DNA from: an uncultured bacterium
GTDB taxonomy: Bacteria > UBA8481
NCBI GenBank assembly: GCA_964499705.1
Contig: CAZCME010000014.1
Span: forward strand, 1 to 64,000
DNA length: 64,000 bases
Direction: 5' to 3'
Under the pieces are notes generated by a model, which worked only from the letters and a program-made list of their open reading frames with translations, was not told the origin of the DNA and searched no databases. The position numbers were made by a program, and so were the translations under genes. This document shows, in pieces, positions 1 through 46,343 of the stretch; within the stretch, counting starts at the first letter, position 1; each line of letters opens with the position of its first letter.

Positions 1-2209
1 GCCACTGGCCGTCGGTCTTCCGAAGTTCGATGCGCACCGTCGCGGAATAGTCGCGCGTCTCGTCGAAGCTGCCCGTCGTGGACTTCCTGGCCCACTGGAA
101 CGTGACGATCAGGAACTTGTCCGGCGTCACGATCTCGATCTGCTCGGAACTCCATCGGCAGAACGACGTCGTCGTCTTGTTGAACTGGTCGCGGATCGAG
201 TTCTCGAACTGCTGGTAATCCACGAAGCCCGGCTCCGGTGAGATGAAATCGCGGTCGATGATGGTAAGCAGTTTCGCGCGATCGTTCTGGAGATAGGCGT
301 CGCGGAGGGTATCGAGGAGCAATTTTATGCGCTGTACCTGCGTGAGATTGATGTAGCGGAGAATTTCCAGATCGCCGTCCATCTTGCGGATCACTCCCTC
401 CGCCGGGCCGGCGGCCGTGTTGAACTTGAAGAGGAATCGGTAGTCCGTGTTCTCCGCGAGCTTGAGGGTAAACGTGAAATCGCCCGTCGAGGCGTCGTAT
501 GTGAGAGGCAAGTAGGTGGCGCCGTTGTCGACCGAGATCGACGCGGCGGTGACGGCTTTTCCGTTCGAGACGCGGCCGGAGATCGTGAGCGTTCCGTCCG
601 GCGCTTTTTCACGATCGATCAACGTCATCCTCTCAAAGCTTGTCGAAGAGTACCCGTTGAGATTCGCGGAGACGATCTCGATCGCTCCGTCGGCCACCAC
701 GCGAGGCGGCGGCGCGAGCTGGACGGTGAAGGACGAGAGGAATCCGGCCGGCGGCGTCATCATGAAGTTCCCGGCTGCGTTCTTCGGAATGACGAGGAAG
801 CTATAGGATCTGGCGTCGCGAAGAAGCTCCGATCCATCCTGCGCGGTCATTTGGAAACGTGTCATCGGGAGATCCCGAGCGAGAATCGTGTTGTCCACGG
901 AAAACGGACTGCGGGAGAGATAGAGCGTGTAGGTCGCGGCGCCCGGATACTGCGGCCAGGTGAACGCCGGAGTCGCGGTGTTCGCGGTCATCGAAGCCGC
1001 AACGACGAAGGGCAGAGACGCAACGGGCGTCGTCGGAGCCGTGCCGCCCGGCCAATCGACGGCTGCGATGGCGGTCACGAAGACTCCCGCGGATACCGTC
1101 GATGTCGCGTCGGTCAACTGGATCTTGTCGGCGACGCCGCCGGTCATGCCCGCGGTGTAGAGCCCGCTGACGGGTTCGATCGAGCCGCCGGAGTTGTTCT
1201 CGGCGATCGAGAATCTGTGGCTTCCCGCTCTCGGCGTTCCGTTCTCACTGTGATAGACATTCCCGGCGCGACCGCCGCTCGCGCCGAACCGGATCGTTCC
1301 GCCGGTCGCGACGCGCACGAGCCCGTCCGCTCCGATCTCCGCGTCCGCGGGATTCTCGATCGTCAGGGCGCGCTTCTTCCTTATAAACATCCGCGAGAAC
1401 TTCAGGTTCGCGACGTCGGTGTAGTTTCCGGCGTCGAGCGTCATCATATTCGCGCCCGACGCGCTCACTTCCAATGCCGCCGCGGTCGCTTCCGCCTCGA
1501 ACGCGCTCTTCAACTGATCGAGAACTTCCTTCACCGCGGGCTGGGGTTCGCCCGGAGTCGCGCCCTGCAGAACGTTCAGATATTCGCCAGCCGTGACGTT
1601 CCTCTTCCATCCGCCGGGCCCGGACATTTCCACCTTGCCGTCGACGACGGTGATGACCAGCTTGCCGGATTTCCCTGCGGCCCGCGCGACGGAATCCACG
1701 ACGTCCTGATAGGACAGTTCAAACAGCGTGCCGCGAACTCCCGCGACGGCGACTGGCGTGCTGATCGAATAGTTTCCCGTGCGACCCGCAGGGCGATTGA
1801 ACGAGTTTTTCAGCGTGCCCGATGTGAGCGAAAGAGAAATATCGTCGCGAACGGTCTTGGTGGTGCGGAGGAACGAGCGCGCTTCGCTCTCGACCTGCCG
1901 GAGATCCTCCACCGTGACCGTGGTCTGCGCACCAAGCGAGGTCATGCCGACGTCACTGATCACGATGCGGCACGAGCTGTTCGCTCCGGTCCTGATCATG
2001 TCGCCCTTCTTCACCGACATCTTCGCAACGGCCGGAACCCAATCCTTCCCCGCGTTGACGCTCACCTTCACGTCACCGTTCAGCCCATCGAGATGCGCCT
2101 TGTGGACGAGAAGCTCGCGTTCCGCGTTAGGCGCCGCGCCCGCGGGCACCACGACCGTCATGCAGAGAGCGAGCAGGAGAATCCAGGATGTGAATCGCGC
2201 GACCGTCAT
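1..2209 (-). CDS. Secreted FecR-domain protein with Ig/FN3-like middle and NTF2-like distal domain (3' end off window)
   Basis: Not in ORF track because there is no stop in the window. Hand translation from ATG 2209 (ATGA overlap with the giant gene stop) is open to the edge: signal peptide [25 protein letters not shown], FecR-type motifs [12 protein letters not shown] and [15 protein letters not shown], distal [13 protein letters not shown]...[10 protein letters not shown]. Confidence 0.8.
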
Positions 2210-27800: not shown

Positions 27801-29915
27801 GACCGACCAGAGGTAAGTGAACGTGTCGCCATTCGTGGCGATGTCGGTGTCGGTCGAACCGGTGATCCGGAGAAACGTGGAGTCGATCGGACGGATCGTG
27901 CTGTCGGAGATGGTGATAGTACCGGCGACGGGTGTGTCGTTCACGGGGGTGAGCGTGATCGCGAGGAACTGCGTGACCGTTTCACTGGTATCGGAAAGTC
28001 TCAGCGTCACGGTCTCGGTGCCGTTCGAGTCCGCCCTCGGCGCGATGCGGAGCGTGCGCGAATCATTCATCGAGACCGTCACGATGCTCCCGCCACCAGA
28101 AACGGTCCAGAAAGCGATGAGCGTGTCACCGGCGTCGGTGTCATTGGTGAAGGGCGTGAGCGCGATCGTCCAGACAACCGTATCCTCCACCCGCGACTGG
28201 GCGGGTACGGAGGGCGACGAGATGAAGGGCGTGTCGTTCACTGCAGCCAGTGTAATCGCAAGGGTATCGCTGGTCGTGTCCTTGTTGTCCGACAGGCGGA
28301 CCGTCACGGTCTCGGTGCCGTTCCGATCCGCGATCGGCGTGATCCGGAGCGTCTGCGAATCGTCCATCGAGACAGTCACGACCGTGCCGCCGCCCGTAAC
28401 GCTCCAGAAGAGAATCGGAACATCGAGGAAGTTCGTGTCGTTGCCGAAGGGCGTAAGAGTAACAGTCCATGCCGCGGTGTCCTCATTACGCGACTGCGGC
28501 GGAAGAGGAACGATTGTGGGCGCCAGGTTCCCGGTAAGAGCGATCCGGAAGTGCGTATCCGCCGCATCGAACGTCACCCAGGATGTCGCAACGCCAGCGG
28601 AACCGCCGATAGCGCGCGCCTGCCAGTGGTACTGGCCATTCGCCAGGCTGTCGGCGAGGATCGAGAGCGTCTCGCCTCCCGACGACGCCGAGGGGGCGCT
28701 CTGGAAGAATGTGATCGTGTCGATGGCAGGATTCGCCGGGCTCGTGAAGGCCGTTCCCGCCGCGCGCAGTTCAACCTGGATCCGGAACGTTTCGCTGCCC
28801 GTTCCGGAGGCGAAAATGTTGAAGCGGATCGAGTTCGTGTCCGTCACCTGGTCGTTGAGCGCGATCGGCGTCATATCGGGCTTCGTCTGCGCAAGCCCGG
28901 TCGGCGTATTCGGCGCGGCGGAATCGAGGTAGAACCGGGAGAAGCTGGTCGAGATTCCTCCGTGAAGACCATACAGGAAATTGCCGCTTCCGGGATACAC
29001 GAGGCCACCGCCGGCCTGGAAAGTGTTCGGTGCCGTATCCGAGATCAACGTCCAGTTGTTGCCGCTGATCGAGTAGCGGTACATGTCGCTGGAGTTGTCG
29101 CCGCGCGTCGCGTAAATGAAGTTGCCGGAGCCCGGATAGAGCAGCGACCCGCCGCCTTGCACGTTCACCGGCAGAGAGGTCATCGCCGACCATGTATTCG
29201 ACGAGATGATGTAGCGGTAAAAATCCGGGTTCAGACCTCCTCGCAGAGCGAAAATGGTGTCGCTGCCGGCTTGCGCGAGCGCCGCGCCGGCGTCGATGGT
29301 ACCCGGAGCATCAAGCATTGCCGTCCATGTATTCGTGGAGATGGTGTATTGATAGAAGTTCATCGTGCCAACGCCCGGCGTGGCGAAGATCGTGTCGTCA
29401 CCCGTCGTGACAAGCGCGCCGCCCCCCTGCACGACCTGCGGAATATCGAGCATCGCGGTCCAGGCGTCCGCCGAGATGACGTACCGAGTGAAGGCCTGCG
29501 ACAATCCTCCCGACAGGACGAAGATCGTATCGCTCCCGGCTAGTTCGAGCGTTCCGCCACCCGCCAGGGTCCCCGTCAGATCGGTCATCTGAGACCACGC
29601 GTCCTGCGAGATGATGTACCTGTAAAGCGTGGCGGCGTTGTCGCCGCGCATCGCGAAGATCGTATCCGTTCCGGCCTCGGTCATGAGCCTGCCTTCGTTC
29701 AACCCGCCGCCGATATTCAACGGCGTCGCGGCGCGCGTGTCCCAGTTGAACGCGGTGGCGGCTCGCGCGGGAGCGACGAGCGCGAAGAAGAGGATGAGGA
29801 AGGAACAATATTTAATTTGTAATTTGTAATTTGTAATTTGTAATTTTTCAGCTCGATCAGGAGCAAAATTAAATATTTCAAATTTCAAATTACACATTAT
29901 AAATCGTCTTTTCAT
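24837..29915 (-). CDS. 1692-aa secreted Kelch-like propeller + cadherin-like/PKD/FN3 repeat protein with C-terminal FlgD-Ig / T9SS-CTD-like domain
   Basis: Start ATG 29915 (TGATG overlap). About six repeats of DTIFA..G......Y.Y.IS...W..M; 298-aa tandem duplication; C-terminus TPNP...[11 protein letters not shown]...[20 protein letters not shown]...EKLVIFR. Confidence 0.8.
26454..28240. repeat. Intragenic tandem duplication, period 894 bp (298 aa)
   Basis: GATGTTGATCCGGAGCCGGAACGAATCGGA starts at 26454 and 27348, and the protein units are near-identical. Right boundary approximate. Confidence 0.85.
29808..29904. repeat. 97-bp AT-rich heptamer palindrome (family C) inside a signal-peptide coding region
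   Basis: (AATTTGT)x4 at 29814-29841, short GC spacer, degenerate inverted arm. Confidence 0.9.
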
Positions 29916-32167
29916 CAAAAGATCACCTTCAACCCGAGCAGGGTCGTCCACCGGTGATGATTATTCGCCGTGATCGCGAAGTCGTTGATCTCATAGTCGC
30001 CGCGCGCGGTCAGAGTGTTCTTGAACTCGGCGCGCTCGTTCGTGTACGAGAGATCGAGCGTGAACCGGTCCTTCGTCGAGTCCTGCGACTGGAGCGTCCC
30101 GCGCTTCAGATCCCGCAGATAATCGAACCGTCCTGTGAAGGCATCCTTCTCGTACGAGAGTGAACCTCCGAACGTCGAAAAGCGATCCTGTTGAACTCCG
30201 CCGTCGCGCGAGCGGTAATTGCCCTTCAGCTCGACCTTCAGAAAGTCATTGATCGATTTCGAGACCGTGTTATCCCACCGCAGCTCCTGGATCGTCTGCA
30301 GCTCGAACCTCAGCTTGTCGCGTTCCCGCTCGTCGTCCCACGTGAAGCTGGTCGTGTAGATGTCCCATAGCGTGTTCTTAACGTTGAATGAGGCCTTGAA
30401 GTTCTCGCGATTGTTGGACGGCGCCGTTCCGACGACCTTGATGTCGTCATACGTCCGGCGGAGAGAATAGTCGGTGGTGAAGACGGACTTATTGAGATAC
30501 GGGCTCTTCCACGTCGCGAACGGCTTGGAGACGAGATTCAGGCCCGATGTCAGAAGCACGTCCACGGAGGTGCGATTCGCGACGCGGTTCGATCGCGTAG
30601 CTTCTCCTCTCCATGTATAGTCGATCCACTTCACTTTTCCGGGCAAATTCGCGGTCACGCCCAGCTTCTCGCGATCCGAAGTTGCGCTGCCGTAGATAGT
30701 CCGGAAATTCTCGTCCACATACGTGTAGACGCCCTCCAGCGTCAGATCGTGGTATTTCTGCGTCAGCCGGAGGTCCAGGAGATCGCCGCGGTTGTACGTC
30801 GTGTCAGGCAACCGGATTTCCTTGTGGTACGACCGGTCGAGATCGAACTTCAGCTCGGTTGAGTGCTTCCACGGCGCTTTTGCGCTTCCGCTGATTCCGT
30901 AGATCTGATTGTCCACCTGAGTCCTGACGCCCGCGGCTACGGTCGGATCCTGGTCGCGCGCCGCGTCGGCCAGGAATCGGACCTTCACGATGTCCTTGAA
31001 GGCCGCTTCCCACGCGCCGCCCACCGAGTAGCGCGGCAGATCCCCGAGGCCGTTCGCCCGGAAATCCCGGCCGCCGATAACCAGCAGGTTGTGCTTCATC
31101 CCGCCGAATTCGTATTTCCCGTCGTAGGATGCGCCGGCAAGCGTCTGGTCGAAGACATACTTGTTCAAGGTCGCGCTCACGGTGCCGAACTTGAAGAGGT
31201 TGTTCGGATTGACGAGATACTCCAATTCGCCCCGCTGCAGGGACAGCGCGCGAATCTCCCTCGGTTCGTACTTCCCGATGGCGACGCCCTTGACTTCCGA
31301 ATTGTCCCAGCGGATCGGCTCGAGCTTCATCGTCGTCGTCTGCGTGAATCGGTTCGTCGTGAACTTGTTCTGCCCCGCCGCCGCAAGCGTCCCTTCCGGG
31401 ATATTGATGATCTCGTCCTCGAAATTGAGGTTCCACGAAAGATACTTTCGCCGCGGAACCGGCGGCCCGACGCCGCCCAGCAGCGCTTTCTCCTCATCCG
31501 ATAGTTCGACCTTTTCGCGCGGAGCCGCCGGCGCCGTCACGGGGAGTCGATCCCGCTCCCGGTCTAGAACGGCGTGGATAGCCTCAGCAAGTTCGACGAG
31601 AAGTTTCTCCTCGATCGCCTCGCGGTCGGTCATGCCAAGTTCGAGCGAATAGGTATCCGTGTAATAGTTCAGCTCCCGGATAAAATTCTTACGCTCCACA
31701 ATATCCCGGCCCGTTCCTTCGTCGAGCACGGCGAAGTCGACGCGGATCTGGACGAGTCGTTCGAGCGGTCTGCCGTTGGCGTCCGTCCGCCGATCGGTGA
31801 TCGTCAGCTCCCGGATCGTTCCGGAGAGCGAAAGCGCCGCGGTCGTCGAGAGCGTGAACCCGGTGTCCGAGAGAAGTGTCCGCTCGATCGCGCGCTTCAG
31901 GATTCCGACGACCGTCTTGCCCTGACCTGACCCGTCCGCAACTTCCGTAATACGGACGTTTGCGGCTGTCTGAAACTCGTCCACACGGAGCGCGATCGGA
32001 GCAGGCGCAGAAGCGGAAGCGGAAAGGGCGAGAGTCAGGCAGAGCAGGATCGGGAGATATTTAATTTGTAATTTGTAATTTGTAATTTGTAATTTTCCGG
32101 TTCGAGCAGTAGAAAAATTACAAATTAAACATTTCAAATTAGAAATTAAATATTGATTTTTCTTCAT
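29915..32167 (-). CDS. 750-aa outer-membrane protein: LptE-like N-terminal domain + large beta-barrel
   Basis: Start ATG 32167 (TGATG overlap). Signal ...LLCLTLALSASA; LSLSGTIREL...VQIRVDFAVLD...EAIEEKLLVELAEAI resembles the LptE fold; ~500 aa of amphipathic strands ending LGLKVIF. Confidence 0.65.
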   Translation of the reverse strand: MKKNQYLISNLKCLICNFSTARTGKLQITNYKLQIKYLPILLCLTLALSASASAPAPIALRVDEFQTAANVRITEVADGSGQGKTVVGILKRAIERTLLSDTGFTLSTTAALSLSGTIRELTITDRRTDANGRPLERLVQIRVDFAVLDEGTGRDIVERKNFIRELNYYTDTYSLELGMTDREAIEEKLLVELAEAIHAVLDRERDRLPVTAPAAPREKVELSDEEKALLGGVGPPVPRRKYLSWNLNFEDEIINIPEGTLAAAGQNKFTTNRFTQTTTMKLEPIRWDNSEVKGVAIGKYEPREIRALSLQRGELEYLVNPNNLFKFGTVSATLNKYVFDQTLAGASYDGKYEFGGMKHNLLVIGGRDFRANGLGDLPRYSVGGAWEAAFKDIVKVRFLADAARDQDPTVAAGVRTQVDNQIYGISGSAKAPWKHSTELKFDLDRSYHKEIRLPDTTYNRGDLLDLRLTQKYHDLTLEGVYTYVDENFRTIYGSATSDREKLGVTANLPGKVKWIDYTWRGEATRSNRVANRTSVDVLLTSGLNLVSKPFATWKSPYLNKSVFTTDYSLRRTYDDIKVVGTAPSNNRENFKASFNVKNTLWDIYTTSFTWDDERERDKLRFELQTIQELRWDNTVSKSINDFLKVELKGNYRSRDGGVQQDRFSTFGGSLSYEKDAFTGRFDYLRDLKRGTLQSQDSTKDRFTLDLSYTNERAEFKNTLTARGDYEINDFAITANNHHRWTTLLGLKVIF
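32057..32153. repeat. 97-bp AT-rich heptamer palindrome (family C) inside a signal-peptide coding region
   Basis: ATATTT(AATTTGT)x4...AATTAAATAT; same length and left arm as 29808-29904. Confidence 0.9.
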
Positions 32168-36181: not shown

Positions 36182-37126
36182 TCAGAGCGCGTTGAAGAGA
36201 TATCCCGTGAAGATGATCCCCAGCGTCGTCACTCCGAAGAAAATGAGAATCAGGTGCAGCGTCATGGCGCGACGGAGCATGATCGCCTCGGGGAGCGAAA
36301 GAGCGGCGGTCGCCATCATGAAGGCCAGCGCCGTGCCCAGCGGAACTCCCTTCTGAAAAAGCACCACCGCGATGGGCACGATCGCCGCGCAGCTCCCATA
36401 CATCGGTACACCGATCAGCGTGGCGACGGGAACGGAAAAGACTCCCGCCGAGCCCGCGATGCTCTGGAGCGTTTCCGCCGGCACATAATTGTGGATACCC
36501 GCGCCGATGCCAACGCCCACGAGCACCCAGATCCAGATCTTCCTCGTGATGGAGACGGCCTCGTCTAAACCGAAGCGGATTCTCCCGCGCATGCGCATAG
36601 TCTCGTCCTTCACTTCCGTCGGCGTGTCGGTGCTCACGAGGTCGCGCACCAGGTATTTTTCCAGATTCATCCGCCCGAGCACCACGCCTGCGATAATTCC
36701 CAGGGCAAGGCCGCTGGCGACGTAAAGTGCCGTGATCCTCCAGCCGAAGTAACCGAACATCAGGATGACGAGGTATTCGTTAATGAGCGGTGACGTGATG
36801 AGGAATGAAAACGCGACGCCAAGCGGAATGCCGGCTTCCATGAAGCTGAGGAAAAGCGGGATGGAGGAGCAGGAACAGAACGGCGTCACGGCTCCGAAGA
36901 GCGACGCGCCCATGTTGGCTACGACTCCCCTCCCGGCCATCCACGCCTTGACGCGATGCTGCGGAAGAAACGTTCGCAGCACACCGATGACCAGGATCAT
37001 GGTAAAGAGCAGCAGCAGGATCTTCACCGAATCATAGACGAAGAAACTGACCGAGGCACCGAGCCGCGACGTGCGCTCCAAGCCGAGGATGTCGTAGGCG
37101 AGTCCGTCTGCCATTTCTATCAGCAC
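36182..37126 (-). CDS. ArsP/DUF318-family permease
   Basis: [22 protein letters not shown]; multiple TM segments; ars operon context. Confidence 0.88.
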
Positions 37127-37281
37127 CTGGAACCCTTGTCCTTTTTCGACCCGGCGCAGCAGGACGCTTCCCTGGCCTTTTTTTCGAGCTTCCTGTCGAG
37201 CGAATCGAGGATTCGCCCGAAGAATCCCTTGCGTTTCTCCGCGCGTGCCGTTGTCACTTTCTCATCTGTTTTCACCTTCAT
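37120..37281 (-). CDS. 53-aa basic protein with a Cys-Cys pair (ars operon)
   Basis: AAGGAG RBS before ATG 37281; MKVKTDEK...[17 protein letters not shown]...RC. Confidence 0.65.
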
Positions 37282-37303
37282 CGACTCCTTCCGGATTTCT
37301 TCT

Positions 37304-38392
37304 TCATGACGCTTCCGCCGTGCATACGCCGACCGCGGGCGGTGGAAACCAATGCCTGGTCCTGACGCAGAACGAGCAGACCGTGAGCATGACCGGAACT
37401 TCGACAAGAACGCCGACCACCGTGGCCAGCGCCGCTCCTGAACCCGGACCGTACAACGCGATGGCCGTTGCGACGGCGAGCTCGAAGAAGTTGGAAGCTC
37501 CGATCAGGGCCCCGGGAGCGGCGACCGCGTATTCGACCCGCAGTGCGCGCATCAGACCATAGGCCAGGGCCGAATTGAAATAGACCTGAATGAGAATCGG
37601 GACGGCGATCAGGATGACATGAAACCATCGCGTTGTGATGTTCTCCGCCTGGAACGCAAAGATGAGGACGAGCGTCGCCAGGAGAGCCATGATCGTCACG
37701 GGCTGGAAGATCGGCAGCAGTTTCTGCTCGAACCATGCGCGGCCGCGGCGGGGGATCGCGAAGGAACGCGTGACCGCGCCGAGCGAAAGAGGAATCACGA
37801 CGAAGACCGCTACGGCCCACAGGAGAACCTGCCAGGGAACAACAAGAGTCGAGGCGCCGGAAACGAGGAACCGGACCAGCGGCGCGAAAAGAATCAGCAT
37901 GATGAGATCGTTCACGGCGACCTGAACAAGCGTATAGGCCGGATCGCCGTCGGACAGCGCGCTCCAGACGAAAACCATGGCCGTGCATGGCGCGGCGGCA
38001 AGGATGATGACGCCGGCCGTGTACTGGTCGGCCAGTTCCGGCCCGATCCAGGGCAGAAAGACGTGGCGGAAAAAAATCCAGCCGAGGAATGCCATCGAAA
38101 AGGGTTTCACGAGCCAGTTGACGACGAGCGTCACGGCCAGCCCTCGCGGCTTCTCCCGCACGCGCAGCACGCTCGCAAAGTCGATCCTCAGCATCATGGG
38201 ATAGATCATGAACCAGAGAAGGATCGCGATCGGGATGTTGATCTGGCTGCCGCCGCCGAACTCCATGCCCCGCAGAACCACGGTGGCCTCGGGAGCGAAT
38301 CGGCCGATCAGGATGCCGCCGGCCATGCAGAGCGCGACCCAGAGCGTCAGGTAGCGCTCAAAGATATTCATGTGCGGCGCCCGTACGCTCAT
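37304..38392 (-). CDS. acr3: ACR3-family arsenite efflux transporter
   Basis: FERYLTLWV, MIYPMM, APCTAMVFVW, GASNFFELAVA, VLVEVPVML; ATGA overlap with arsC. Confidence 0.95.
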   Translation of the reverse strand: MSVRAPHMNIFERYLTLWVALCMAGGILIGRFAPEATVVLRGMEFGGGSQINIPIAILLWFMIYPMMLRIDFASVLRVREKPRGLAVTLVVNWLVKPFSMAFLGWIFFRHVFLPWIGPELADQYTAGVIILAAAPCTAMVFVWSALSDGDPAYTLVQVAVNDLIMLILFAPLVRFLVSGASTLVVPWQVLLWAVAVFVVIPLSLGAVTRSFAIPRRGRAWFEQKLLPIFQPVTIMALLATLVLIFAFQAENITTRWFHVILIAVPILIQVYFNSALAYGLMRALRVEYAVAAPGALIGASNFFELAVATAIALYGPGSGAALATVVGVLVEVPVMLTVCSFCVRTRHWFPPPAVGVCTAEAS

Positions 38393-38841
38393 CGCGGAGC
38401 CTCCAGGTTTTCCGGCATTCCTTCCACGAACCGCCGGATCTCGTCCCGGACGCGCCGATAGTGCGCCAGCGCCTCCTCCTCGGTCTTCGCGCCCTGCGCC
38501 AGTTTCGGCGGATCGTCGAAACCGACGTGGACGATCCGCGCTCTCCGATTCAGCCAGGCCGGACACGTCTCGTGGGCGTGGCCGCAGACCGTGACGACCA
38601 CGTCAAAGGCGATGTCCATCAGGGATTCGACGTTCTTGGAGCGATGACCGGATATATCCACGCCGGCTTCCGCCATGACCGCGACCGCGCGGGGATTCAA
38701 CCCGTGTGTCTCGATGCCCGCGGAATACGGTTCGATTCGCTCGCTCTTCAAGGCGCGCGCCCATCCTTCGGCCATCTGCGAGCGGCAGGAGTTCCCGGTG
38801 CAGAGGAAGAGCACTTTCATTTTCGCGTCCGGCGCCGGCAT
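38389..38841 (-). CDS. arsC: Arsenate reductase (LMW-PTP type)
   Basis: FLCTGNSCRSQMAEG, CGHAHETCP, FDDP; GGAGG before ATG 38841. Confidence 0.93.
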   Translation of the reverse strand: MPAPDAKMKVLFLCTGNSCRSQMAEGWARALKSERIEPYSAGIETHGLNPRAVAVMAEAGVDISGHRSKNVESLMDIAFDVVVTVCGHAHETCPAWLNRRARIVHVGFDDPPKLAQGAKTEEEALAHYRRVRDEIRRFVEGMPENLEAPR

Positions 38842-39224
38842 AAGGCCTCCTTGTCGATACGACGGATCTTCGCCATCTTCGCCCGGTCCGCCCGGATCTC
38901 CGGAATATTCCTCCCCGCCTCGATCGCCCACCGGATCGCGCGGCGAACGGGAGCCGGAGCCGAAGAATCCGCCGCGCGGCAGTGGATCCATCTCCCTTCC
39001 TTGCGGGTCGCGACGAGCCCGGCGGCCTTCAGGAGAAAGAGATGCTTGGAGACCGTCGACGGAGCCAGCCGCAGCAGTTCCACGAGCTGGCAGACGCAGA
39101 GCTCCTCGCCTCCGAGAGCCACGAGGATGCGCAGACGCCCCGGGTCGCCGAGCGCCTTCCCGACCGCCGCCAGCGACGCGAGCGGCCACTCCGCTCCGGA
39201 GGAATCATTCCTATAATTCGCCAT
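38817..39224 (-). CDS. arsR: ArsR/SmtB repressor
   Basis: KALGDPGRLRI, ELCVCQL, STVSKHL. Confidence 0.92.
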   Translation of the reverse strand: MANYRNDSSGAEWPLASLAAVGKALGDPGRLRILVALGGEELCVCQLVELLRLAPSTVSKHLFLLKAAGLVATRKEGRWIHCRAADSSAPAPVRRAIRWAIEAGRNIPEIRADRAKMAKIRRIDKEALCRRRTRK

Positions 39225-39569: not shown

Positions 39570-40730
39570 CTATTTGCTCTTCCCGCCCGGCTGCTGTGTT
39601 CTCCCTTTCTTTTTTCGCAACGAGGCGCCCCCTGGCGCCGATTTCGGCGAAACTTCCCCCCGCTCACTGGACGGCGCGTGAAGCCGATAGTGGTCGCGTG
39701 AGAATTCGAATTGCCGCGAGTAGATTTGCTTAATCCCAGCCGCGGAACCGGTTTCGTAAAAGGTGAGCATCGCGGAAAGAAACTCGCTGTTTTCCACTCC
39801 ACGATACGAAAGAGGATGGAGATTTCGCGATAGCAAGACGGCGTCGGCAACCAACCGGGAAGTCCGTTTGTTTCCGTCGACGAACGGCTGGACGTAGCTT
39901 AGCCCGGCCAGCGCCGTGAGAGCGGCAGTATGCGAATTCTCCGTTCTGCCGACTGCATCAAGAATGTCCTTCACGGCTTCTTTGATCTGGAACTCGTTGT
40001 CCGCCGGGCGGTATGACGTCGACGTTATTCCCACGAGTCGCCGCCGGAAACCTGTATCGACATTCAGCCCCTTTACCATGACGGCGTGAACCTGTCGCAG
40101 TACAGCCTCCGAGGGGCGATTGCGGAATTCGTCGAGATTCTCCAGTACAAATTGAAATGCGGTCTTGTGATTCAGAATCATGATCGCTTCCTCGGCCTTG
40201 CGGCCTGGAGCACGGCGACCGGTCGTTAACAGCTCCTGCGTATCCAACAGCGAATATGTGTTTCCCTCGATACTCGACGATTTCCAGGCTAGCTCGATTA
40301 CGAATCGCTCCAGTTCTTTTCTAGCCGCCGTATCGCCTGCTCTCAGATCCATGGATCTTTCCGGTGGAAGCGGGGCTAGTTTTGCCAATTCGTCGTCGCG
40401 GAATAGCGAGATCGGAAGATTCCGGATAAGTTCGGGGTCGAACGGTCGGCAGAAACGCTTGTCAGGATCCACGGCGCAGTGGAGCACCGGATCGATAGGC
40501 GCGGACAGCCGCCCGAGAACTGTGAGAGTGTATCCACCACCGCGCCCTGGGCCGGTCGAAGCGACGTATCCGCCCTTCAAGAGGTCAGCCATGTCTCGGC
40601 GTATGGTGGCGATCGAAACCTCAAGCTTCTCGCCGAGGTTCTCAGCGGTGGTGGGAGATGTTGCGTCCGGTTTCGTAGCCAGAATGGCAAGAGCCTCGCC
40701 TTGGCGTTTGGAAAAAGGTATCATAATCAC
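39570..40730 (-). CDS. Winged-HTH + Fic-domain protein
   Basis: N-terminal LGEKLEVSIATIRRDM; SSSIEGNT; Fic loop QPFVDGNKRTSR. Confidence 0.88.
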   Translation of the reverse strand: MIMIPFSKRQGEALAILATKPDATSPTTAENLGEKLEVSIATIRRDMADLLKGGYVASTGPGRGGGYTLTVLGRLSAPIDPVLHCAVDPDKRFCRPFDPELIRNLPISLFRDDELAKLAPLPPERSMDLRAGDTAARKELERFVIELAWKSSSIEGNTYSLLDTQELLTTGRRAPGRKAEEAIMILNHKTAFQFVLENLDEFRNRPSEAVLRQVHAVMVKGLNVDTGFRRRLVGITSTSYRPADNEFQIKEAVKDILDAVGRTENSHTAALTALAGLSYVQPFVDGNKRTSRLVADAVLLSRNLHPLSYRGVENSEFLSAMLTFYETGSAAGIKQIYSRQFEFSRDHYRLHAPSSERGEVSPKSAPGGASLRKKKGRTQQPGGKSK

Positions 40731-40937: not shown

Positions 40938-43900
40938 TCACGCTACGAAGTTCTTCAGCTCCCTCCATTCGAGATCGCCTTGCACGCGGACGAGAGCATC
41001 GGGATTCGAACCGGCTTGTTCGAGGGCGTCATCGAGAGTAAACGGCCCTTTGATACCCTCGGAAATCTTGATGCTCCATATTCGCAATCCTTTGGCCGCG
41101 CACCAGAACGGAATCCATTCTTCACCCAGCCTTGCGATCAGGGCGACCACGGAAAATCCAGGCGTGCGGATCAGTTCTTCAAGCGTGAAAGGCCCTTCAA
41201 CCGACGTCCCGTTCCAGAGATGCCAGCCACCTGGATCGTTTTCCGAAAGAAGCGGACCGCTGTGGCCTTGATACCAAATTACAGCGTGGATCGCCACTGG
41301 CTGTGCGAATCCTTTCAACGCGAGCGATTGGTATTCCTTCACGGGAACCGGGTTTCTGAGCGAATAGAGCGTCCTATCGCTGATGAAGATGCGATAGGGC
41401 CATGCCTTGGAGGAAATTCTTTGCGAAAGATTGACGTCCGAACCGATCACGGTCCAATCGGTGCGCTCGGGAGTGCCAACGTGCCCGGCAAGAACCTCGC
41501 CGGTTGCAATGCCAATGCCGAAGAAGAGTTGCATTTGTCCTAACCTTGCACGCTCGTTGTTGATTTCATAAATGCGCTCCTGCATCTTGATCGCTGCCGC
41601 GATAGCTCGATCGGCGTAATCGTCGACGGGCTCGGGAGCGCCCCAGACAGCGAGAACAGCATCGCCGATGAATTTGTCCACAACGCCGCCCGAGGCGATG
41701 ACTTCTTCGACGACGGGGACGAAATAGAGATTGAGGAGCCGCACCACTTCACTGGCTGGCAGAAGCTGTGAAGCGTGCGTGAACCCGCGAACGTCAGCAA
41801 ACATGATGGAACAGGTGTGAAGCGATCCGCCCAGCGTAGCCTGTCCTTTTGCCGCCTCGCGTACGACAGCGCCCGGTACGTATTTGCGAAATGCCGACTC
41901 GAGTTGAAGCCTTTCCTTGATAGAAACCACCATGTGATTGAATCCGGTGGCTATTCGCGACAGTTCATCGCGTCCATAGGAATCGAGGTTCGGGGTAAGA
42001 TCGCCCTGCCCTACCTTGCCGATCGCCGAATCGAGTCTGTAAACTGGCCGAACGATGCCGTGTCCGACGAGCTGAATTCCCACGAAGGAGAGCAGAAATA
42101 CAATGGCAACGCCGCCGAAAGCGGTCCAACGGATTGCCGCGACCTCCTGTACGTACGCCGTGCGATCGACCAGAAATTGGAGAGTCACGTCCCGGGGCAG
42201 TTTTTCGAGCGTCGTGACGATGAATTCGCGCCCGTTCAATTCGACGATTTCTCCATCCACGCGCGGCCGCGCATAAACGCTCCGTCCCGCTTCCCAAGTC
42301 TCAGGATTTTCCCGGAAAAAGAGACCGGAAAGAATATCGGCGTCCGAAGGATCGAGTCCCGGAATCTTTCGCATCTCTTCGGAGGAGTAGGGTTGACCGG
42401 CGGGGCCAAGGCACGGCGCAAGCGCATCGCCAATAGCCTCCGCATTCGCGATCGCAAGGAGATCGAGGTATACTTTCAAATCTTCAGGCGTCGCCGTTTG
42501 GAGGTTGAACGGCGACAAGGTCTGAGTGGGGCGCCAGTCGAAATCTCTAAGTAATCCCACGTTGAGTTCGGGAGTCGTCACGACGGGCCGACCATCCCAG
42601 ATCGTCGTGGCCACGACCGTGTCGGTGGCGGTACAGATGAGGTCAATGCCTGTTCCGATTTTCATGTGTTCGAGGAAGAGGGCATCGAGGTGCACGAGGT
42701 TGATCAGGATTCCCCAATCGTCTATATTGCTTCTTCCCACGATCAGAAATACCTCGCGCCCTCCGGATTTGGCTTCGATCGCGAGAACTGGTGGAACCAG
42801 GTCATCGAATACCGCTCGGGTGTCCGCAATCAGAGCGTCTTTGAGCGGTTTCCGGATCTCTCGGGGAATTGTCGGAGGAAAATACATTTCAGGCACGAGA
42901 CCCCTGAGATCGATAAAAGTGGCTTCCACGCCGAGCTTGTGGCCGAGTCCCACGGCCCAGCTGTAGGCATTCTCGATGTTGGCGAAGTTTCCCCTCTCAC
43001 CGCTGTCCATCCGGGCAATTGTGGCCGAGTCGGCAATAAATCGCGCGCGGATTTCGGATTTCTTCGCAGCCTTGATGGTGGACCGCCAACTGGAAGTGAG
43101 AATTGGCGCGCTGCCGTCAGTCACGTTGTAGGTGATCGACCAGCGGTCGTGCAGGATGCGCCGCATCTCTTCCCGGCGAGCGTCAAAGCGGTCCGTAGCC
43201 GTGCGAACTACGAATTGCTCCACAATGACCCAAGTCAGAAGCCCCGCTCCGGCCGCCGACAAGATCGAGACGAGCGCGAGGCGGGGACGAAGATTCACTT
43301 TCGACAGCGCGCGTTCGGCAATATCGCCTAACAGATCGCGTCGTCGCAGCACGAACCATGCTATGAAGACGATGCCGATCACGGCAACGCCGATGAAAAG
43401 CCAGCTCATGGACGATGCGCGCTCCGGCGCTTTCGGCGGCGGCTCGGAATTGCCCGGGCTTTCACCTCGAACACTCGCATTGACGAGTCCGCTGTCGACG
43501 AGGATGCGCAGTTTGTTGTAACGAAGGAAATTAAGCAGTTCCCACGGATTTTTAAATCCTCCTTCCGCCGTTCTCCTTTCGATGATTTGCTTGGCCACGA
43601 AGGGACTGATCCAGGGAAGTTGATCCAAGGCAGCCTCGTCGCAGGTATTGATATCAACCGGTGTGATCGTTCTTGAAACAGGGGATTCGTCCGTATCGTC
43701 AGGATCATACTCGTCGGCTGGCGATACAATCTCGTCTGCTTCAGCGGGTTTCTCAACAGGCGGTGGCGACTGCGGCGACCGAGGCGGAGCAGAGTTCGGG
43801 GCGGAGCGGCTATTCTGGGGAACGAAGGACGAACGTGGCGACGTCGCGCCCGCACCTCCGACGGTCACGAGGTTTCTGAATTTGTCCAAGCGTTCCTTGC

Positions 43901-44120
43901 CGATGCCTTTGACAATTTGCAAATCGTCGACCGTCCTAAAAGGCCCCTTTGCCGCACGGTGCTCGACAATCGCCTTGGCCTTGGCTGCCCCTATTCCCGG
44001 CAGCTTGTCGAGTTCCTCGATGGTTGCAGTGTTGATGTCGATTTCTCCCGCGGCGTGTAACGCGGCGGCGGTTGAGAGCAAGAGGACGCAGAAGATGAAT
44101 GCCCGGATATTCAATTGCAT
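40938..44120 (-). CDS. Membrane class III adenylate cyclase with N-terminal ComEA-like HhH domains, HAMP and C-terminal GYF_2-like repeats (1060 aa)
   Basis: Start ATG 44120 with signal peptide. IDINTATIEELDKLPGIGAAKAKAIVEHR; three TM helices; HAMP GRDELSRIATGFNHM; FADVRGFT, DKFIGDA, TVIGSDVNLSQR; two W...GPFTL motifs. Confidence 0.88.
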   Translation of the reverse strand: MQLNIRAFIFCVLLLSTAAALHAAGEIDINTATIEELDKLPGIGAAKAKAIVEHRAAKGPFRTVDDLQIVKGIGKERLDKFRNLVTVGGAGATSPRSSFVPQNSRSAPNSAPPRSPQSPPPVEKPAEADEIVSPADEYDPDDTDESPVSRTITPVDINTCDEAALDQLPWISPFVAKQIIERRTAEGGFKNPWELLNFLRYNKLRILVDSGLVNASVRGESPGNSEPPPKAPERASSMSWLFIGVAVIGIVFIAWFVLRRRDLLGDIAERALSKVNLRPRLALVSILSAAGAGLLTWVIVEQFVVRTATDRFDARREEMRRILHDRWSITYNVTDGSAPILTSSWRSTIKAAKKSEIRARFIADSATIARMDSGERGNFANIENAYSWAVGLGHKLGVEATFIDLRGLVPEMYFPPTIPREIRKPLKDALIADTRAVFDDLVPPVLAIEAKSGGREVFLIVGRSNIDDWGILINLVHLDALFLEHMKIGTGIDLICTATDTVVATTIWDGRPVVTTPELNVGLLRDFDWRPTQTLSPFNLQTATPEDLKVYLDLLAIANAEAIGDALAPCLGPAGQPYSSEEMRKIPGLDPSDADILSGLFFRENPETWEAGRSVYARPRVDGEIVELNGREFIVTTLEKLPRDVTLQFLVDRTAYVQEVAAIRWTAFGGVAIVFLLSFVGIQLVGHGIVRPVYRLDSAIGKVGQGDLTPNLDSYGRDELSRIATGFNHMVVSIKERLQLESAFRKYVPGAVVREAAKGQATLGGSLHTCSIMFADVRGFTHASQLLPASEVVRLLNLYFVPVVEEVIASGGVVDKFIGDAVLAVWGAPEPVDDYADRAIAAAIKMQERIYEINNERARLGQMQLFFGIGIATGEVLAGHVGTPERTDWTVIGSDVNLSQRISSKAWPYRIFISDRTLYSLRNPVPVKEYQSLALKGFAQPVAIHAVIWYQGHSGPLLSENDPGGWHLWNGTSVEGPFTLEELIRTPGFSVVALIARLGEEWIPFWCAAKGLRIWSIKISEGIKGPFTLDDALEQAGSNPDALVRVQGDLEWRELKNFVA

Positions 44121-44311
44121 TTGCCCCCTTAGAAAGAAAGTCTCATTTTCAACCGAACCGCGTCCGCGCGGCGAATATATTTCCTCTGAGCGTCGGTCGC
44201 TCGCGTGGCGCCAGTCGTCACGTGATAGGAAGCCCTTGAAGATAATTTCGGGGGCCTTTTCGTTTCGGCCTCCTCGCCTCGTTGGATCGTCATCCAGTCG
44301 ACTCGCATCAC

Positions 44312-46343
44312 CTAACCCAACTTCAACAGTTCGGAAGCTTGAATGACACTGGCGGGCAAATAGAGGCCGAGTAGACAAAAAGTCTGCACTACATTTCGGG
44401 ATTCGCTTTTGGGCTCCACGTAGGAGCGGCAAGTCGCCGCGGAACGCTGAGCCCGAGACGCTGCAACAGGGTTTGGAGCGGTTTTTCGGCGGTGCTGATG
44501 CAGGAGATCCGGATTTCGCGACCACCCTTGGTCGGCAGGATCACATCGGTAGCCTGAAGCGATCGTATCGCTTCAAGCAGCGTCTTCACGCTGGAACCGA
44601 GCCCGGCCCGCTCACTCCATTTTTGAATTGTCTTCCATGTCGCGTAAGCGAGGAACGCGACGAGGATATGCGCCTCGACGCGCCTCTGCTTTTTGTGCCA
44701 TATCGGGCGAAGGTCGAGGCAGGTCTTGATGGTTCGGAAGGAATCTTCCACGTCCGTCAGGCCGATGTAGGTCCGCCACAATTCCGTGGCGGACATCTCC
44801 GTCACGTTTGTGCGGAGCAGATAGCATCCTTCCGAAAGTTCCGCCCACTCATTTCGCTCCTTGCGGCGAGTCCACTCCAGTTTCAAGCCGCAAGGTTGAT
44901 CGGAATCTTCTTTCAAGTCGATGTCGAAAAATCCCGCTCCGCGAGAAGACTTCTGCAGGATGCGCCCGATCTGGCGACTGACTTCAAGCGCATCGGCTTT
45001 TTTCTTCCTTTTGACGAGCCGCCCCTGCAGTTTTGTCAGACTCTCTTCGATCCGTGTCACAAATCGCTCGTGCATCGCCTTTTCTTTTTCTTTTCGATCA
45101 CGGCTCCGGCACAGCACGAAGGTTTCCGTCTCATCCGGCCCCGCGCATTTCCGAACCTCGATGCCGTCGCGGATCGTCTCCCACTCTTTCGCCAACAGGT
45201 CCTTCTCGAATTTGCGAAGCATGGATTTCGGCGTGCCCACGATGTAGCGAGCCTCCCGCTTCTGAAGAAACTCGATGTTCTCTTCGCTGACCATTCCGCG
45301 ATCCATGACCCAGATGCGTCTCGCCTTGCCGTGGCGAGCTTCCATCGTTTTGACGATCTTCTCGACGGTGGTGGAGTCCGCGGTGTTTCCGGCGAATACC
45401 TCGTAGCCGAACGGCAGTCCGTCTTTCGTCGTCAGGAGAGCGATACAGACTTGCTTGCAGTCGAATCGCTGGTCGCGCGAATACCCCCGTTTCGCGAGCT
45501 CGTTTTCTTCGGCTTGTCCTTCGAAATAGGTGGAGGTGATGTCGTACAGAACGATCTCGTACTCCGCCGCGAACAATTCGCCGAGTCGATTCTTCAAATG
45601 TGTTTCAATGGCGGCCTTGTGCGGCAGAAGTTCATCGAGCGCCCGGTAGAGACGTTGAGGATAGATATGGTCCGACTCGAGTCCGAAGATATCGACAAGT
45701 GCAGTCCCGGGATACCAGGCTTCCGCGGTGTGCAACTCGCTTCCGGGTGAAATCACGCGACCCAGGACCATAATCGCGGCGACATGAGCCCATGGAATCT
45801 CTTCTCGCCCCTCGGGAATGATTTCCAGAAGCAGTTTTTCGAGACCGAGCGCTCGCCATGCGGAGAGTGCCAGCCAAATATCGCCAAAGGCGCGGACATT
45901 TTCCGTCCGAACACCATCGAGCCGAACTTCGACGGTTTCGGGAACGGGATCAAGCCTTGTCGATTCGTTCAGCAGAGATGCCTGTTGGAGGCAGCGCATC
46001 GCCGGGTCGGAGAGACGCGACTGAAATGCAGCCCATCCCTGGCGCTGCGACGGAGTCAGCTCACCAAGATACGCCACGCTTTTCTGGCGCGGTCCCTTCG
46101 CGGTTCGGATCGACTCCACAAGATCCCAATACGTGTGAGTCTTCCCGTCTTTGCACCGCTTCTTTTTTCGCAGGTACATGCGACTATCGTCGCACAGGCT
46201 ATTCGAGCTTCAAGAGGGTAAGTCTGCACTACATCGCGGAAAATATTCTACACCGCATCTGAGAGCGCCTTGCACGCCCAACTTTGACTTTCCACAGGCC
46301 GAAAACAGCTGAAATTAATCGCAAACTGTTGAAGCTGGGCTAG
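44312..46343 (-). mobile_element. IS1634-family insertion sequence
   Basis: Ends CTAACCCAACTTCAACAGTT (44312-31) and AACTGTTGAAGCTGGGCTAG (46324-43) are 18/20 inverted. The outer CTAA/CTAG may be target site rather than IR. Confidence 0.85.
44389..46179 (-). CDS. IS1634-family DDE transposase
   Basis: LYDITSTYFEG, GYSRD, VMDRGM, VEDSFRTIK..L..RPIWH; frame intact. Confidence 0.93.
   Translation of the reverse strand: MYLRKKKRCKDGKTHTYWDLVESIRTAKGPRQKSVAYLGELTPSQRQGWAAFQSRLSDPAMRCLQQASLLNESTRLDPVPETVEVRLDGVRTENVRAFGDIWLALSAWRALGLEKLLLEIIPEGREEIPWAHVAAIMVLGRVISPGSELHTAEAWYPGTALVDIFGLESDHIYPQRLYRALDELLPHKAAIETHLKNRLGELFAAEYEIVLYDITSTYFEGQAEENELAKRGYSRDQRFDCKQVCIALLTTKDGLPFGYEVFAGNTADSTTVEKIVKTMEARHGKARRIWVMDRGMVSEENIEFLQKREARYIVGTPKSMLRKFEKDLLAKEWETIRDGIEVRKCAGPDETETFVLCRSRDRKEKEKAMHERFVTRIEESLTKLQGRLVKRKKKADALEVSRQIGRILQKSSRGAGFFDIDLKEDSDQPCGLKLEWTRRKERNEWAELSEGCYLLRTNVTEMSATELWRTYIGLTDVEDSFRTIKTCLDLRPIWHKKQRRVEAHILVAFLAYATWKTIQKWSERAGLGSSVKTLLEAIRSLQATDVILPTKGGREIRISCISTAEKPLQTLLQRLGLSVPRRLAAPTWSPKANPEM

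Follow-up and report, generated by a model that had tools for sequence, protein, structure and literature searches.

A candidate DNA-sensing receptor cyclase that joins ComEA-type helix-hairpin-helix domains to a predicted membrane adenylate cyclase

The window analyzed here is a stretch of 64,000 nucleotides from an uncultured bacterium (GTDB lineage Bacteria; UBA8481), covering positions 1 to 64,000 of the forward strand of contig CAZCME010000014.1 (assembly GCA_964499705.1). On the minus strand, a single unbroken coding sequence (40938..44120, 1060 amino acids plus stop; protein P0001) joins two ComEA-type helix-hairpin-helix (HhH) units behind a signal peptide to a three-pass transmembrane (TM) receptor with a HAMP domain, a class III cyclase domain and a GYF_2 tail. 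The product is a receptor cyclase with an unprecedented ectodomain and a very rare layout. A single polypeptide thereby combines the best-known DNA-binding domain of the periplasm with a signalling output of standard type. The means by which bacteria notice DNA in their surroundings are an open question. Competence and responses to extracellular DNA (eDNA) are known to be triggered indirectly, by starvation, quorum signals, chitin or cation chelation. In those parts of the open-access literature that the search covered, no HhH-cyclase fusion, no signalling protein with a periplasmic sensor domain that binds DNA and no receptor that senses DNA directly on the outer side of the cytoplasmic membrane were found, and within that scope the architecture is undescribed, as an earlier note on this DNA had supposed. 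Judging from the sequence, we consider it distinctly possible, if short of probable, that DNA is a regulatory input to cAMP synthesis by this protein. Such DNA gating would give bacterial signalling an input of a new kind, and a DNA-gated cyclase would be a useful part for synthetic biology.

The features of the gene are given below in residues of P0001. P0039 and P0040 are relatives described further on, and P0188 is the counterpart in a second assembly.

40938..44120 (-): whole coding sequence of P0001; from translation, with a 1059/1060 match to P0188 and contigs from four runs without indels
44052..44120 (-): signal peptide, residues 1-23 (R6, hydrophobic core, AAA/LHA); hydropathy peak at 1-21, equivalent in P0040 at 6-24
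43857..44048 (-): HhH unit d1, residues 25-88, canonical ComEA-type HHH_3; from Pfam HHH_3, TIGR00426 and solved ComEA relatives, 48% identity to d1 of P0040
43665..43856 (-): low-complexity linker rich in Pro, Ser and acidic residues, residues 89-152; from translation, 16% identity to P0040 with 33 gapped positions
43473..43664 (-): HhH unit d2, residues 153-216, degenerate HHH_3; second HHH_3 stretch, own hidden Markov model (HMM) match at 155-197 with 49.4 bits
43347..43409 (-): predicted TM1, residues 238-258; hydropathy 2.73, equivalent in P0040 at 210-228
43284..43346 (-): predicted basic cytoplasmic loop, residues 259-279 (RRRD...K..R.R); excess of K/R, aligns with the cytoplasmic N-terminus of P0039
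43215..43283 (-): predicted TM2, residues 280-302; hydropathy 2.11, conserved in P0039 (25-43) and P0040 (251-269)
42147..43214 (-): ectodomain, residues 303-658 (~356 amino acids), no Pfam family, possibly Cache-like; from Pfam, PDB sequence comparison, Atlas and hhalign
42306..42539 (-): module 3, residues 528-605, HhH_3-like (PFNLQTA...KIPGLD...LSGLFFRENPETWE); from conservation in P0039 and P0040 and from hhalign
42066..42146 (-): predicted TM3, residues 659-685; hydropathy 2.3
41916..42068 (-): HAMP domain, residues 685-735, directly after TM3; Pfam PF00672, 35.4 bits (cut-off 25)
41310..41819 (-): class III cyclase domain, residues 768-937; Pfam Guanylate_cyc PF00211, 70.1 bits (cut-off 21.9)
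41085..41258 (-): first GYF_2-like unit, within residues 955-1012; 13.5 bits and E 0.062 when scanned alone, sub-threshold
40950..41078 (-): GYF_2 unit (PF14237), residues 1015-1057; 27.1 bits in the whole protein (cut-off 25.8)

Each element named in the earlier note was located where that note had placed it, and the fusion of HhH and cyclase parts in one frame, which it had read from the letters, proved to be intact. The list of open reading frames (ORFs) holds a longer open frame (40938..44525, minus strand), in which 135 codons upstream of the ATG extend into an insertion sequence (IS). The resulting 1195-amino-acid reading from 44525 was dropped because the extension enters the IS, and the start was assigned to the ATG at 44120, which has the Shine-Dalgarno sequence AAGGGGG ahead of it. 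An internal GTG (residue 275) was also considered as the start of a separate cyclase gene and was rejected, since the frame contains no stop between it and the HhH part and since P0040 keeps the fusion. Logan contigs from four runs of two studies, of low depth (about 2-8) and with one run that may itself be the source of the assembly, showed one base difference over the stretch (T>C at 41603, in contig X1), 0 indels and 0 joints. The junction between the HhH and TM parts was spanned by three contigs (X1, 42471-43517; X2, 42784-43440; X3, 43064-43418) with 0 differences and 0 gaps; in these contigs, the interval 43200-43500, for which the earlier note had proposed a read check, shows neither a stop nor a frameshift. 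In the second assembly, a different contig encodes the 1060-amino-acid protein P0188, which is identical to P0001 at 1059 of 1060 positions. The G+C content is even over HhH part, ectodomain, cyclase and tail (0.56-0.58), which makes a recent chimera unlikely. Where labelled, the runs containing the stretch are from a groundwater metagenome. No RNA dataset was among them, and a scan for promoters and terminators gave nothing usable upstream of the cyclase gene.

The N-terminal region was matched by Pfam HHH_3 (PF12836) with 114.3 bits (cut-off 27) in two stretches, the better one at residues 25-85, and by NCBIfam TIGR00426, the ComEA HhH repeat region, with 70.9 bits (cut-off 53.1). The full-length ComEA model TIGR01259 remained below its cut-off (86.3 versus 152.35 bits), and P0001 is therefore no ComEA orthologue and shares only the domain. 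Within this region, d1 contains the motifs IDINTA, LPGIG and VKGIG, and its closest bacterial solved structures are those of ComEA from Geobacillus and Bacillus (8dss, 8dfk). The basic residues K47 and R82 of d1, 35 residues apart, occupy the positions of K164 and K199 in Bacillus subtilis ComEA, as mapped via structure-sequence alignments. Alanine mutants of K164 and K199 are reported to transform at only 0.005 and 0.003 of the wild-type level in B. subtilis, respectively (PMC9747964). In ComE1, binding of dsDNA (double-stranded DNA) needs the VNINTA motif as well as the two HhH motifs. P0001 resembles ComEA and ComE1 (8dss, 8dfk, 2duy) in having an extracytoplasmic HHH_3 domain that comes after a signal peptide or an anchor, and in the I/V-N-I-N-T-A motif, the two G-I-G hairpins and the basic pair of d1. 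While ComEA has no transmembrane signalling output, the domain in P0001 is appended to the N-terminus of a HAMP cyclase with three TM helices, and the second unit is degenerate. d1 is the sole unit with all ComEA DNA-binding hallmarks, from which we infer that it binds dsDNA.

The earlier note had taken three HhH units to be DNA binders. This is supported for d1 and not for d2 or module 3. The VNINTA-type motif together with two G-h-G hairpins is complete in d1, whereas d2 retains only VDINTC and module 3 only FNLQTA. A second HHH_3 stretch is indeed present, as had been claimed, but the HHH_3 HMM covers just the first two thirds of d2 (155-197) and both G-h-G hairpins are lost: LPWIS replaces LPGIG, the second hairpin is gone, and the critical basic pair is absent. 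The d2 unit of P0040 retains an intact first hairpin and has lost the second, and pairwise scores gave no d2-to-d2 orthology between P0001 and P0040.

The HhH units might bind a partner other than DNA, such as a pilus or secretin protein, another envelope component or module 3 of the same chain. We regard this as unlikely. In its favour, the HhH motifs of ComE1 also bind fibronectin, via the same residues as DNA; Pfam additionally matched the region to the non-DNA HhH families T2SSK (26.7 bits) and PsbU (23.2 bits), and d2 and module 3 are conserved though their DNA-binding signature is lost. Against it, d1 keeps every ComEA hallmark and has ComEA as its nearest bacterial structures, and the other HHH_3 fusions found are to nucleases and parts of DNA uptake.

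Hydropathy peaks were found at residues 1-21, 240-258, 282-300 and 667-685. Residues 258-300, which hold the loop between TM1 and TM2, contain 7 K/R versus 3 D/E. Four independent points place the HhH units outside, namely the cytoplasmic location of cyclase and HAMP, the three TM passes, the basic TM1-TM2 loop and the signal peptide. Architecture and topology together indicate that d1, d2 and the 356-residue domain between TM2 and TM3 very probably lie outside the cytoplasmic membrane, with the cyclase inside. This agrees with the arrangement that had been proposed from the letters, and P0040 has the same layout. Since the genome encodes secretins, the outside would be the periplasm of a diderm cell.

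The cyclase domain matched 31 distinct PDB cyclase sequences at E<=1e-10. Its matches include 6fht (3e-37), 2w01 (8.4e-37) and CyaB 3r5g (5.6e-25), and the motifs line up. The catalytic set is complete, with D776/D820 for the metals, K816/T890 as substrate pair and N897/R901 for the transition state. All six residues of the class IIIb set (Asp/Asp, Lys, Thr, Asn/Arg) that had been noticed in the letters are hence present and aligned with solved active cyclases. The lysine of the query aligns with K in 6fht, a bacteriophytochrome-cyclase fusion, and with E in 2w01. A substrate pair of Lys and Thr is of the ATP (purine) type, and Thr in place of Asp marks class IIIb. By these residues, the enzyme looks like an active class IIIb adenylate cyclase. 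Of the two GYF_2-like motifs proposed for the tail, the second passes the cut-off in the whole protein, while the first is sub-threshold on its own. When scanned alone the second unit reached 24.9 bits, and in a six-frame genome search 23.3 bits, with the same cut-off of 25.8. The homologue P0045 has two GYF_2 stretches (39.6 bits). A search of the literature on GYF_2/DUF4339 and on the cyclase-transducer element turned up nothing useful.

For the ectodomain, no Pfam match at E<=10 and no credible solved relative in the PDB by sequence were found. Its neighbours in the Atlas are Cache-type sensor clusters (0.93-0.94, 125-159 shared features), which is a lead only. Alignment by hhalign with the ectodomains of related cyclases, including Cache-bearing ones, was not significant (P 0.06-0.66). 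Ten related HAMP cyclases have Pfam matches into the membrane-proximal part; one of these is dCache_3 above cut-off and two are of Cache type below cut-off. One of the latter two, P0143, consists of a Cache-like part, HAMP, cyclase and two GYF_2 units. The core receptor may be Cache-like, to judge from these matches.

A third, degenerate HhH-like insert had been described within the ectodomain. The insert exists as a conserved module with a profile-profile match to HHH_3, whereas Pfam and the HHH_3 HMM miss it and the DNA-binding hallmarks are lacking. Module 3 shares 35-38% identity with its counterparts in P0039 and P0040. Aligned by hhalign with the HHH_3 profile, it scored 22.1 (P 9.5e-4) over 55 columns in register, nearly the whole domain, and none of 300 column shuffles reached this score (mean 10.2, standard deviation (SD) 2.1, maximum 18.5). 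In pairwise comparisons with d1 and d2 of P0040, module 3 of P0001 exceeded the shuffles by 6.5 and 5.9 SD, and the module of P0040 gave nothing. An Atlas search with residues 528-612 returned no usable match. The weak but significant similarity points to a strongly diverged HhH_3-derived module. Module 3 has a net charge of -6 and contains neither the hairpin glycines nor the critical basic pair; its acidity and the missing glycines make DNA binding by this module unlikely.

Relatives were sought with an exhaustive phmmer search over 1.84 billion cluster representatives. It returned 123,072 matches at E<=0.001, nearly all of them ordinary cyclases or HhH proteins, and the best 150, which were listed, reach down to a floor of 166 bits. 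The top matches were P0039 (975 amino acids, 533 bits), P0040 (1148 amino acids, 388 bits) and P0041 (510 amino acids, 255 bits), along with the fragments P0045 and P0047. The HhH-to-cyclase layout was present in just one other protein, P0040 (33% identity), among the best 150 of the 123,072 matches; any representative in which a good HHH_3 is joined to a HAMP cyclase of typical sequence should exceed the 166-bit floor, and a fusion to a divergent cyclase could be missed. P0040 consists of a signal peptide, two HHH_3 units, a TM helix, a loop, a second TM helix, an ectodomain, a third TM helix, HAMP and cyclase. P0039 begins in the cytoplasmic loop and has no signal peptide, neither HhH unit and no TM1. 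A stretch of ~200 residues that is present ahead of module 3 in both P0039 and P0040 is missing from P0001. Between P0001 and P0040, d1 is 48% and the catalytic domain 47% identical, which shows equal conservation of the two.

In a maximum-likelihood tree built from the HAMP-cyclase part in 60 proteins, P0001, P0039, P0040 and P0041 make up one clade (support 100/99), in which P0040 branches first and P0001 stands beside P0039 and P0041 (99/94). A clade of P0001 with P0040 was not rejected by the approximately unbiased (AU) test (p 0.277), so that a single origin of the HhH module, with or without later loss, is compatible with the data. P0001 and P0040 on the one side and the HhH-less P0039 on the other offer a natural comparison with and without the HhH part. 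Further searches added little. A word-index search gave no full-length relative for the whole protein, only the three known members for longer lengths of ectodomain module A2, and two proteins of HhH-nuclease type for the N-terminal 300 residues. No relative of module A2 was found in genome, metagenome or viral contigs, and none of the ectodomain by tblastn against plasmids and phages; none turned up among 40 relatives examined or in the four other genomes of the phylum.

P0001 shares with the HAMP-linked class III cyclases (the Cache-bearing P0049 and P0143; CyaB 3r5g, CyaC 1wc0 and Cya2 2w01) the core of TM helix, ectodomain, TM helix, HAMP and cyclase as well as the D/D, K/T and N/R residues, and with P0143 also the tail of two GYF_2 units. 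Unlike these enzymes, it is preceded at the N-terminal side by a signal peptide, a pair of HhH units and a third TM helix, and its ectodomain has no Pfam family and holds an HhH_3-like module. P0040 has the whole architecture of P0001; it differs in an ectodomain that is ~200 residues longer and in the first hairpin of d2, which is kept. P0039 has the C-terminal part of the ectodomain, HAMP, cyclase and GYF tail in common with P0001, and lacks the signal peptide, the HhH units and TM1. An analogy can be drawn to cGAS and the bacterial CD-NTases, which sense DNA or infection and make a cyclic nucleotide; these are cytosolic, and the enzyme itself is the sensor. The proposed logic from nucleic acid to nucleotide messenger would be alike, while the fold is unrelated and P0001 would sense outside the cytoplasm.

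Elsewhere in the host genome, core genes of DNA uptake were found, and the host has ample equipment for cyclic-nucleotide signalling and for DNA handling in its envelope. The host is a deep-branching uncultured bacterium, in which the best relative of gltX is 73% identical (in a metagenome-assembled genome) and the next ones are at <=50% in many phyla; the phylum is represented by five species genomes in the collection searched. The genome has 10 further cyclase-domain loci, 29 cNMP_binding matches, three ComEC-like ORFs, DprA and 10 ORFs with HHH_3, including an SNase-HHH_3 nuclease, a secretin and a TPR protein. The secretin, a PilQ-type protein of 3382 residues (C1:479546-489694, plus strand; L105), contains Big_1, Secretin_N and Secretin domains, and four HHH_3 units form its C-terminal part. 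A PilM_2 gene (C1:471900-473579) lies 6 kb upstream of it, and all five genomes of the phylum (5 of 5) have the secretin-HhH part conserved. Fusion partners of HHH_3 were SNase, PilQ-type secretin, Lactamase_B and Exo_endo_phos, and none of 10 tandem-HhH proteins scanned had an output other than a DNA-related one. One ComEC-like protein (1212 amino acids; C2:165914-169552, plus strand; L104:915-4553) has DUF4131 and Competence domains and an N-terminal GYF_2. GYF_2 gave 22 matches in the host genome and none in 14 control genomes; at this frequency, its joint occurrence in the ComEC-like protein and the cyclase may be chance. At C2:149728-151855 (plus strand; L100), a membrane protein of 471 residues with a C-terminal cNMP-binding domain is encoded directly upstream of, and slightly overlapping, a gene for a secreted SNase with HHH_3. 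This pair may tie DNA degradation to signalling by cyclic nucleotides. A paralogue of the membrane protein, likewise with a cNMP-binding domain, is encoded at C2:144895-146298. The genome-wide competence and cyclic-nucleotide context provides leads.

A mechanism can be proposed in which the exported units d1 and d2 hang outside the membrane on flexible, Pro-rich tethers. TM1 would anchor the HhH units and form a hairpin with TM2 of an otherwise ordinary receptor of ectodomain, TM3, HAMP and cyclase. d1 would bind dsDNA in the periplasm, either free DNA or DNA drawn in by the pilus/secretin machinery. Signalling might then follow one of two routes. DNA is a long multivalent ligand and could for this reason bridge d1 of one protomer to d1 of the other, or the d1 units of adjacent dimers. 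Alternatively, binding of DNA by d1 could pull d2, module 3 or both out of an intramolecular contact. In either case the bundle of TM1, TM2 and TM3 would shift, HAMP would relay this movement to the cyclase dimer, and cAMP synthesis would change. The cAMP would be read by the many cNMP-binding proteins of the host, plausibly controlling DNA uptake or degradation. This reading as a whole, a direct transmembrane dsDNA receptor in which d1 catches, d2 and module 3 switch, cAMP tunes DNA uptake or degradation and GYF_2 may couple to the GYF_2-bearing ComEC-like channel, is a tentative one and remains rather doubtful. The functional claim is based on the architecture and on genome-wide, not local, context. 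If it is true, P0001 would be the first known bacterial receptor that signals extracytoplasmic DNA via a second messenger.

Several observations weigh against a direct DNA receptor. The HhH units sit on long low-complexity linkers, which are poor transmitters of force or conformation. With the hairpins of d2 lost and module 3 acidic, each chain has at most one credible DNA binder, and by analogy with ComE1 such HhH units can also bind protein (fibronectin). The sister protein P0039 has no N-terminal HhH part, which implies that the core receptor has another input; its ectodomain may be Cache-like. The family is tiny, with three full-length members (P0001, P0039, P0040), P0041 with a different N-terminus and two fragments. 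Among the 80 loci listed in a scan of metagenome contigs, only L107 and L108 were family-like, and these were short, broken or partial. L108, a metagenome contig of 1634 bp (P0047), is a cyclase relative of 57-64% identity that is disrupted: a transposase-like ORF on the opposite strand (9..848) replaces the part coding for the ectodomain, and the frame breaks near 1412. As it is cut short, L108 is uninformative on the N-terminus. No competence or DNA-handling gene is adjacent to the cyclase gene, its neighbours being an ars operon, a Fic gene, an IS and gltX, and the gene occurs in only 1 of 5 species genomes of the phylum.

Some of these observations fit the main rival, a role in which the HhH part only holds the receptor on DNA, in an eDNA matrix or at the uptake machinery, and the ectodomain or the class IIIb domain senses a small molecule, bicarbonate or pH. 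The site of cAMP production would then be set by DNA, and the rate of the enzyme would not. Class IIIb cyclases respond to bicarbonate. We consider this role a possibility of some weight. It agrees with the retention of ectodomain, HAMP, cyclase and GYF tail in P0039 without the HhH part, with the flexible, low-complexity linkers, and with the addition of HHH_3 to many envelope proteins of the host (secretin, TPR protein, nuclease). The Cache-type Atlas neighbours of the ectodomain at 0.93-0.94 and the Cache-type Pfam matches in 3 of 10 related HAMP cyclases, only one of them above cut-off, point the same way. Opposed to it are the lack of any Pfam match for the ectodomain itself and hhalign values against Cache cyclases of P 0.06-0.09 at best. 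Moreover, an extra TM helix beside the signalling helices would be an odd mere anchor, and d1 is conserved to the same degree as the catalytic domain. Even if the HhH part is only a tether, it would be a new way to place a source of second messenger at DNA.

The cyclase gene is flanked by the ars operon and the HTH-Fic gene on one side and by the IS and gltX on the other. The neighbouring features in the window are:

44312..46343 (-): IS with a DDE transposase (DDE_Tnp_1), ~2.03 kb, 192 bp upstream of the start codon; recognized by inverted repeats, bounds the island and lies outside the gene
39573..40730 (-): HTH and Fic protein, downstream neighbour; Pfam Fic and HTH_11, PADLOC PDC-S04 57.4 bits and SoFic 51 bits, G+C 0.568
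36185-39224 (-): arsenic resistance cluster with ArsP-type permease, SBF/ACR3-type carrier, LMWPc-type arsenate reductase and ArsR; from domain matches

The IS has inverted repeats of 20 nt (44312-44331 and 46324-46343). Copies of its ends were found at five places where contigs end or the assembly has an edge, from which it follows that the IS is multi-copy and breaks the assembly. The G+C content of the cyclase gene, the Fic gene and the IS is 0.57, in the lowest 3% of 2108 long ORFs (mean 0.618, SD 0.027), and the cyclase gene was probably acquired horizontally. No Rfam match was found within 39-47 kb and no tRNA within 36-50 kb.

This location bears on two further explanations. In the first, the protein would serve in anti-phage defence, as a cyclase of Pycsar-like type that would recognize phage DNA injected into the periplasm and raise an alarm by cyclic nucleotide, encoded in a small defence island beside a SoFic-like gene. 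PADLOC models of PycC do match the cyclase (best 75.2 bits over 769-901), the neighbouring gene matches PDC-S04 (57.4 bits) and SoFic (51 bits), and the region is low in G+C and flanked by an IS. The PycC match reflects the generic class III cyclase fold only. Pycsar membership was examined and rejected: the neighbours are the Fic/HTH gene and the IS, with no adjacent TM or TIR effector gene, and P0001 is not a Pycsar system because an effector gene is missing. P0001 further differs from PycC in its purine (ATP) type pair K816/T890 and in its HAMP receptor design, which is typical of sensory cyclases, and no relative was found in the phage, plasmid or viral collections searched. A role in defence is thus very unlikely. 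In the second, the gene would be a functionless passenger on a mobile island, unexpressed or decaying and with no selected role for the HhH part. Its restriction to 1 of 5 genomes of the phylum, its place in the lowest 3% of G+C, the adjoining IS, the interrupted L108 and the very few relatives anywhere searched would suit this explanation. It is nonetheless highly improbable, as 1060 codons are open, all catalytic residues are intact and the Shine-Dalgarno sequence is good; the protein recurs with 1059/1060 identity in the second assembly, and the layout is kept in P0040 at 33% overall identity (48% in d1).

The HTH-Fic gene has a promoter-like site of its own at 40748-40720. Farther away in the window, two long frames on the minus strand look like giant surface proteins, one of 7822 amino acids (2206-25674) and one of 1704 amino acids (24837-29951) with PKD-like, fn3 and Big_9 domains.

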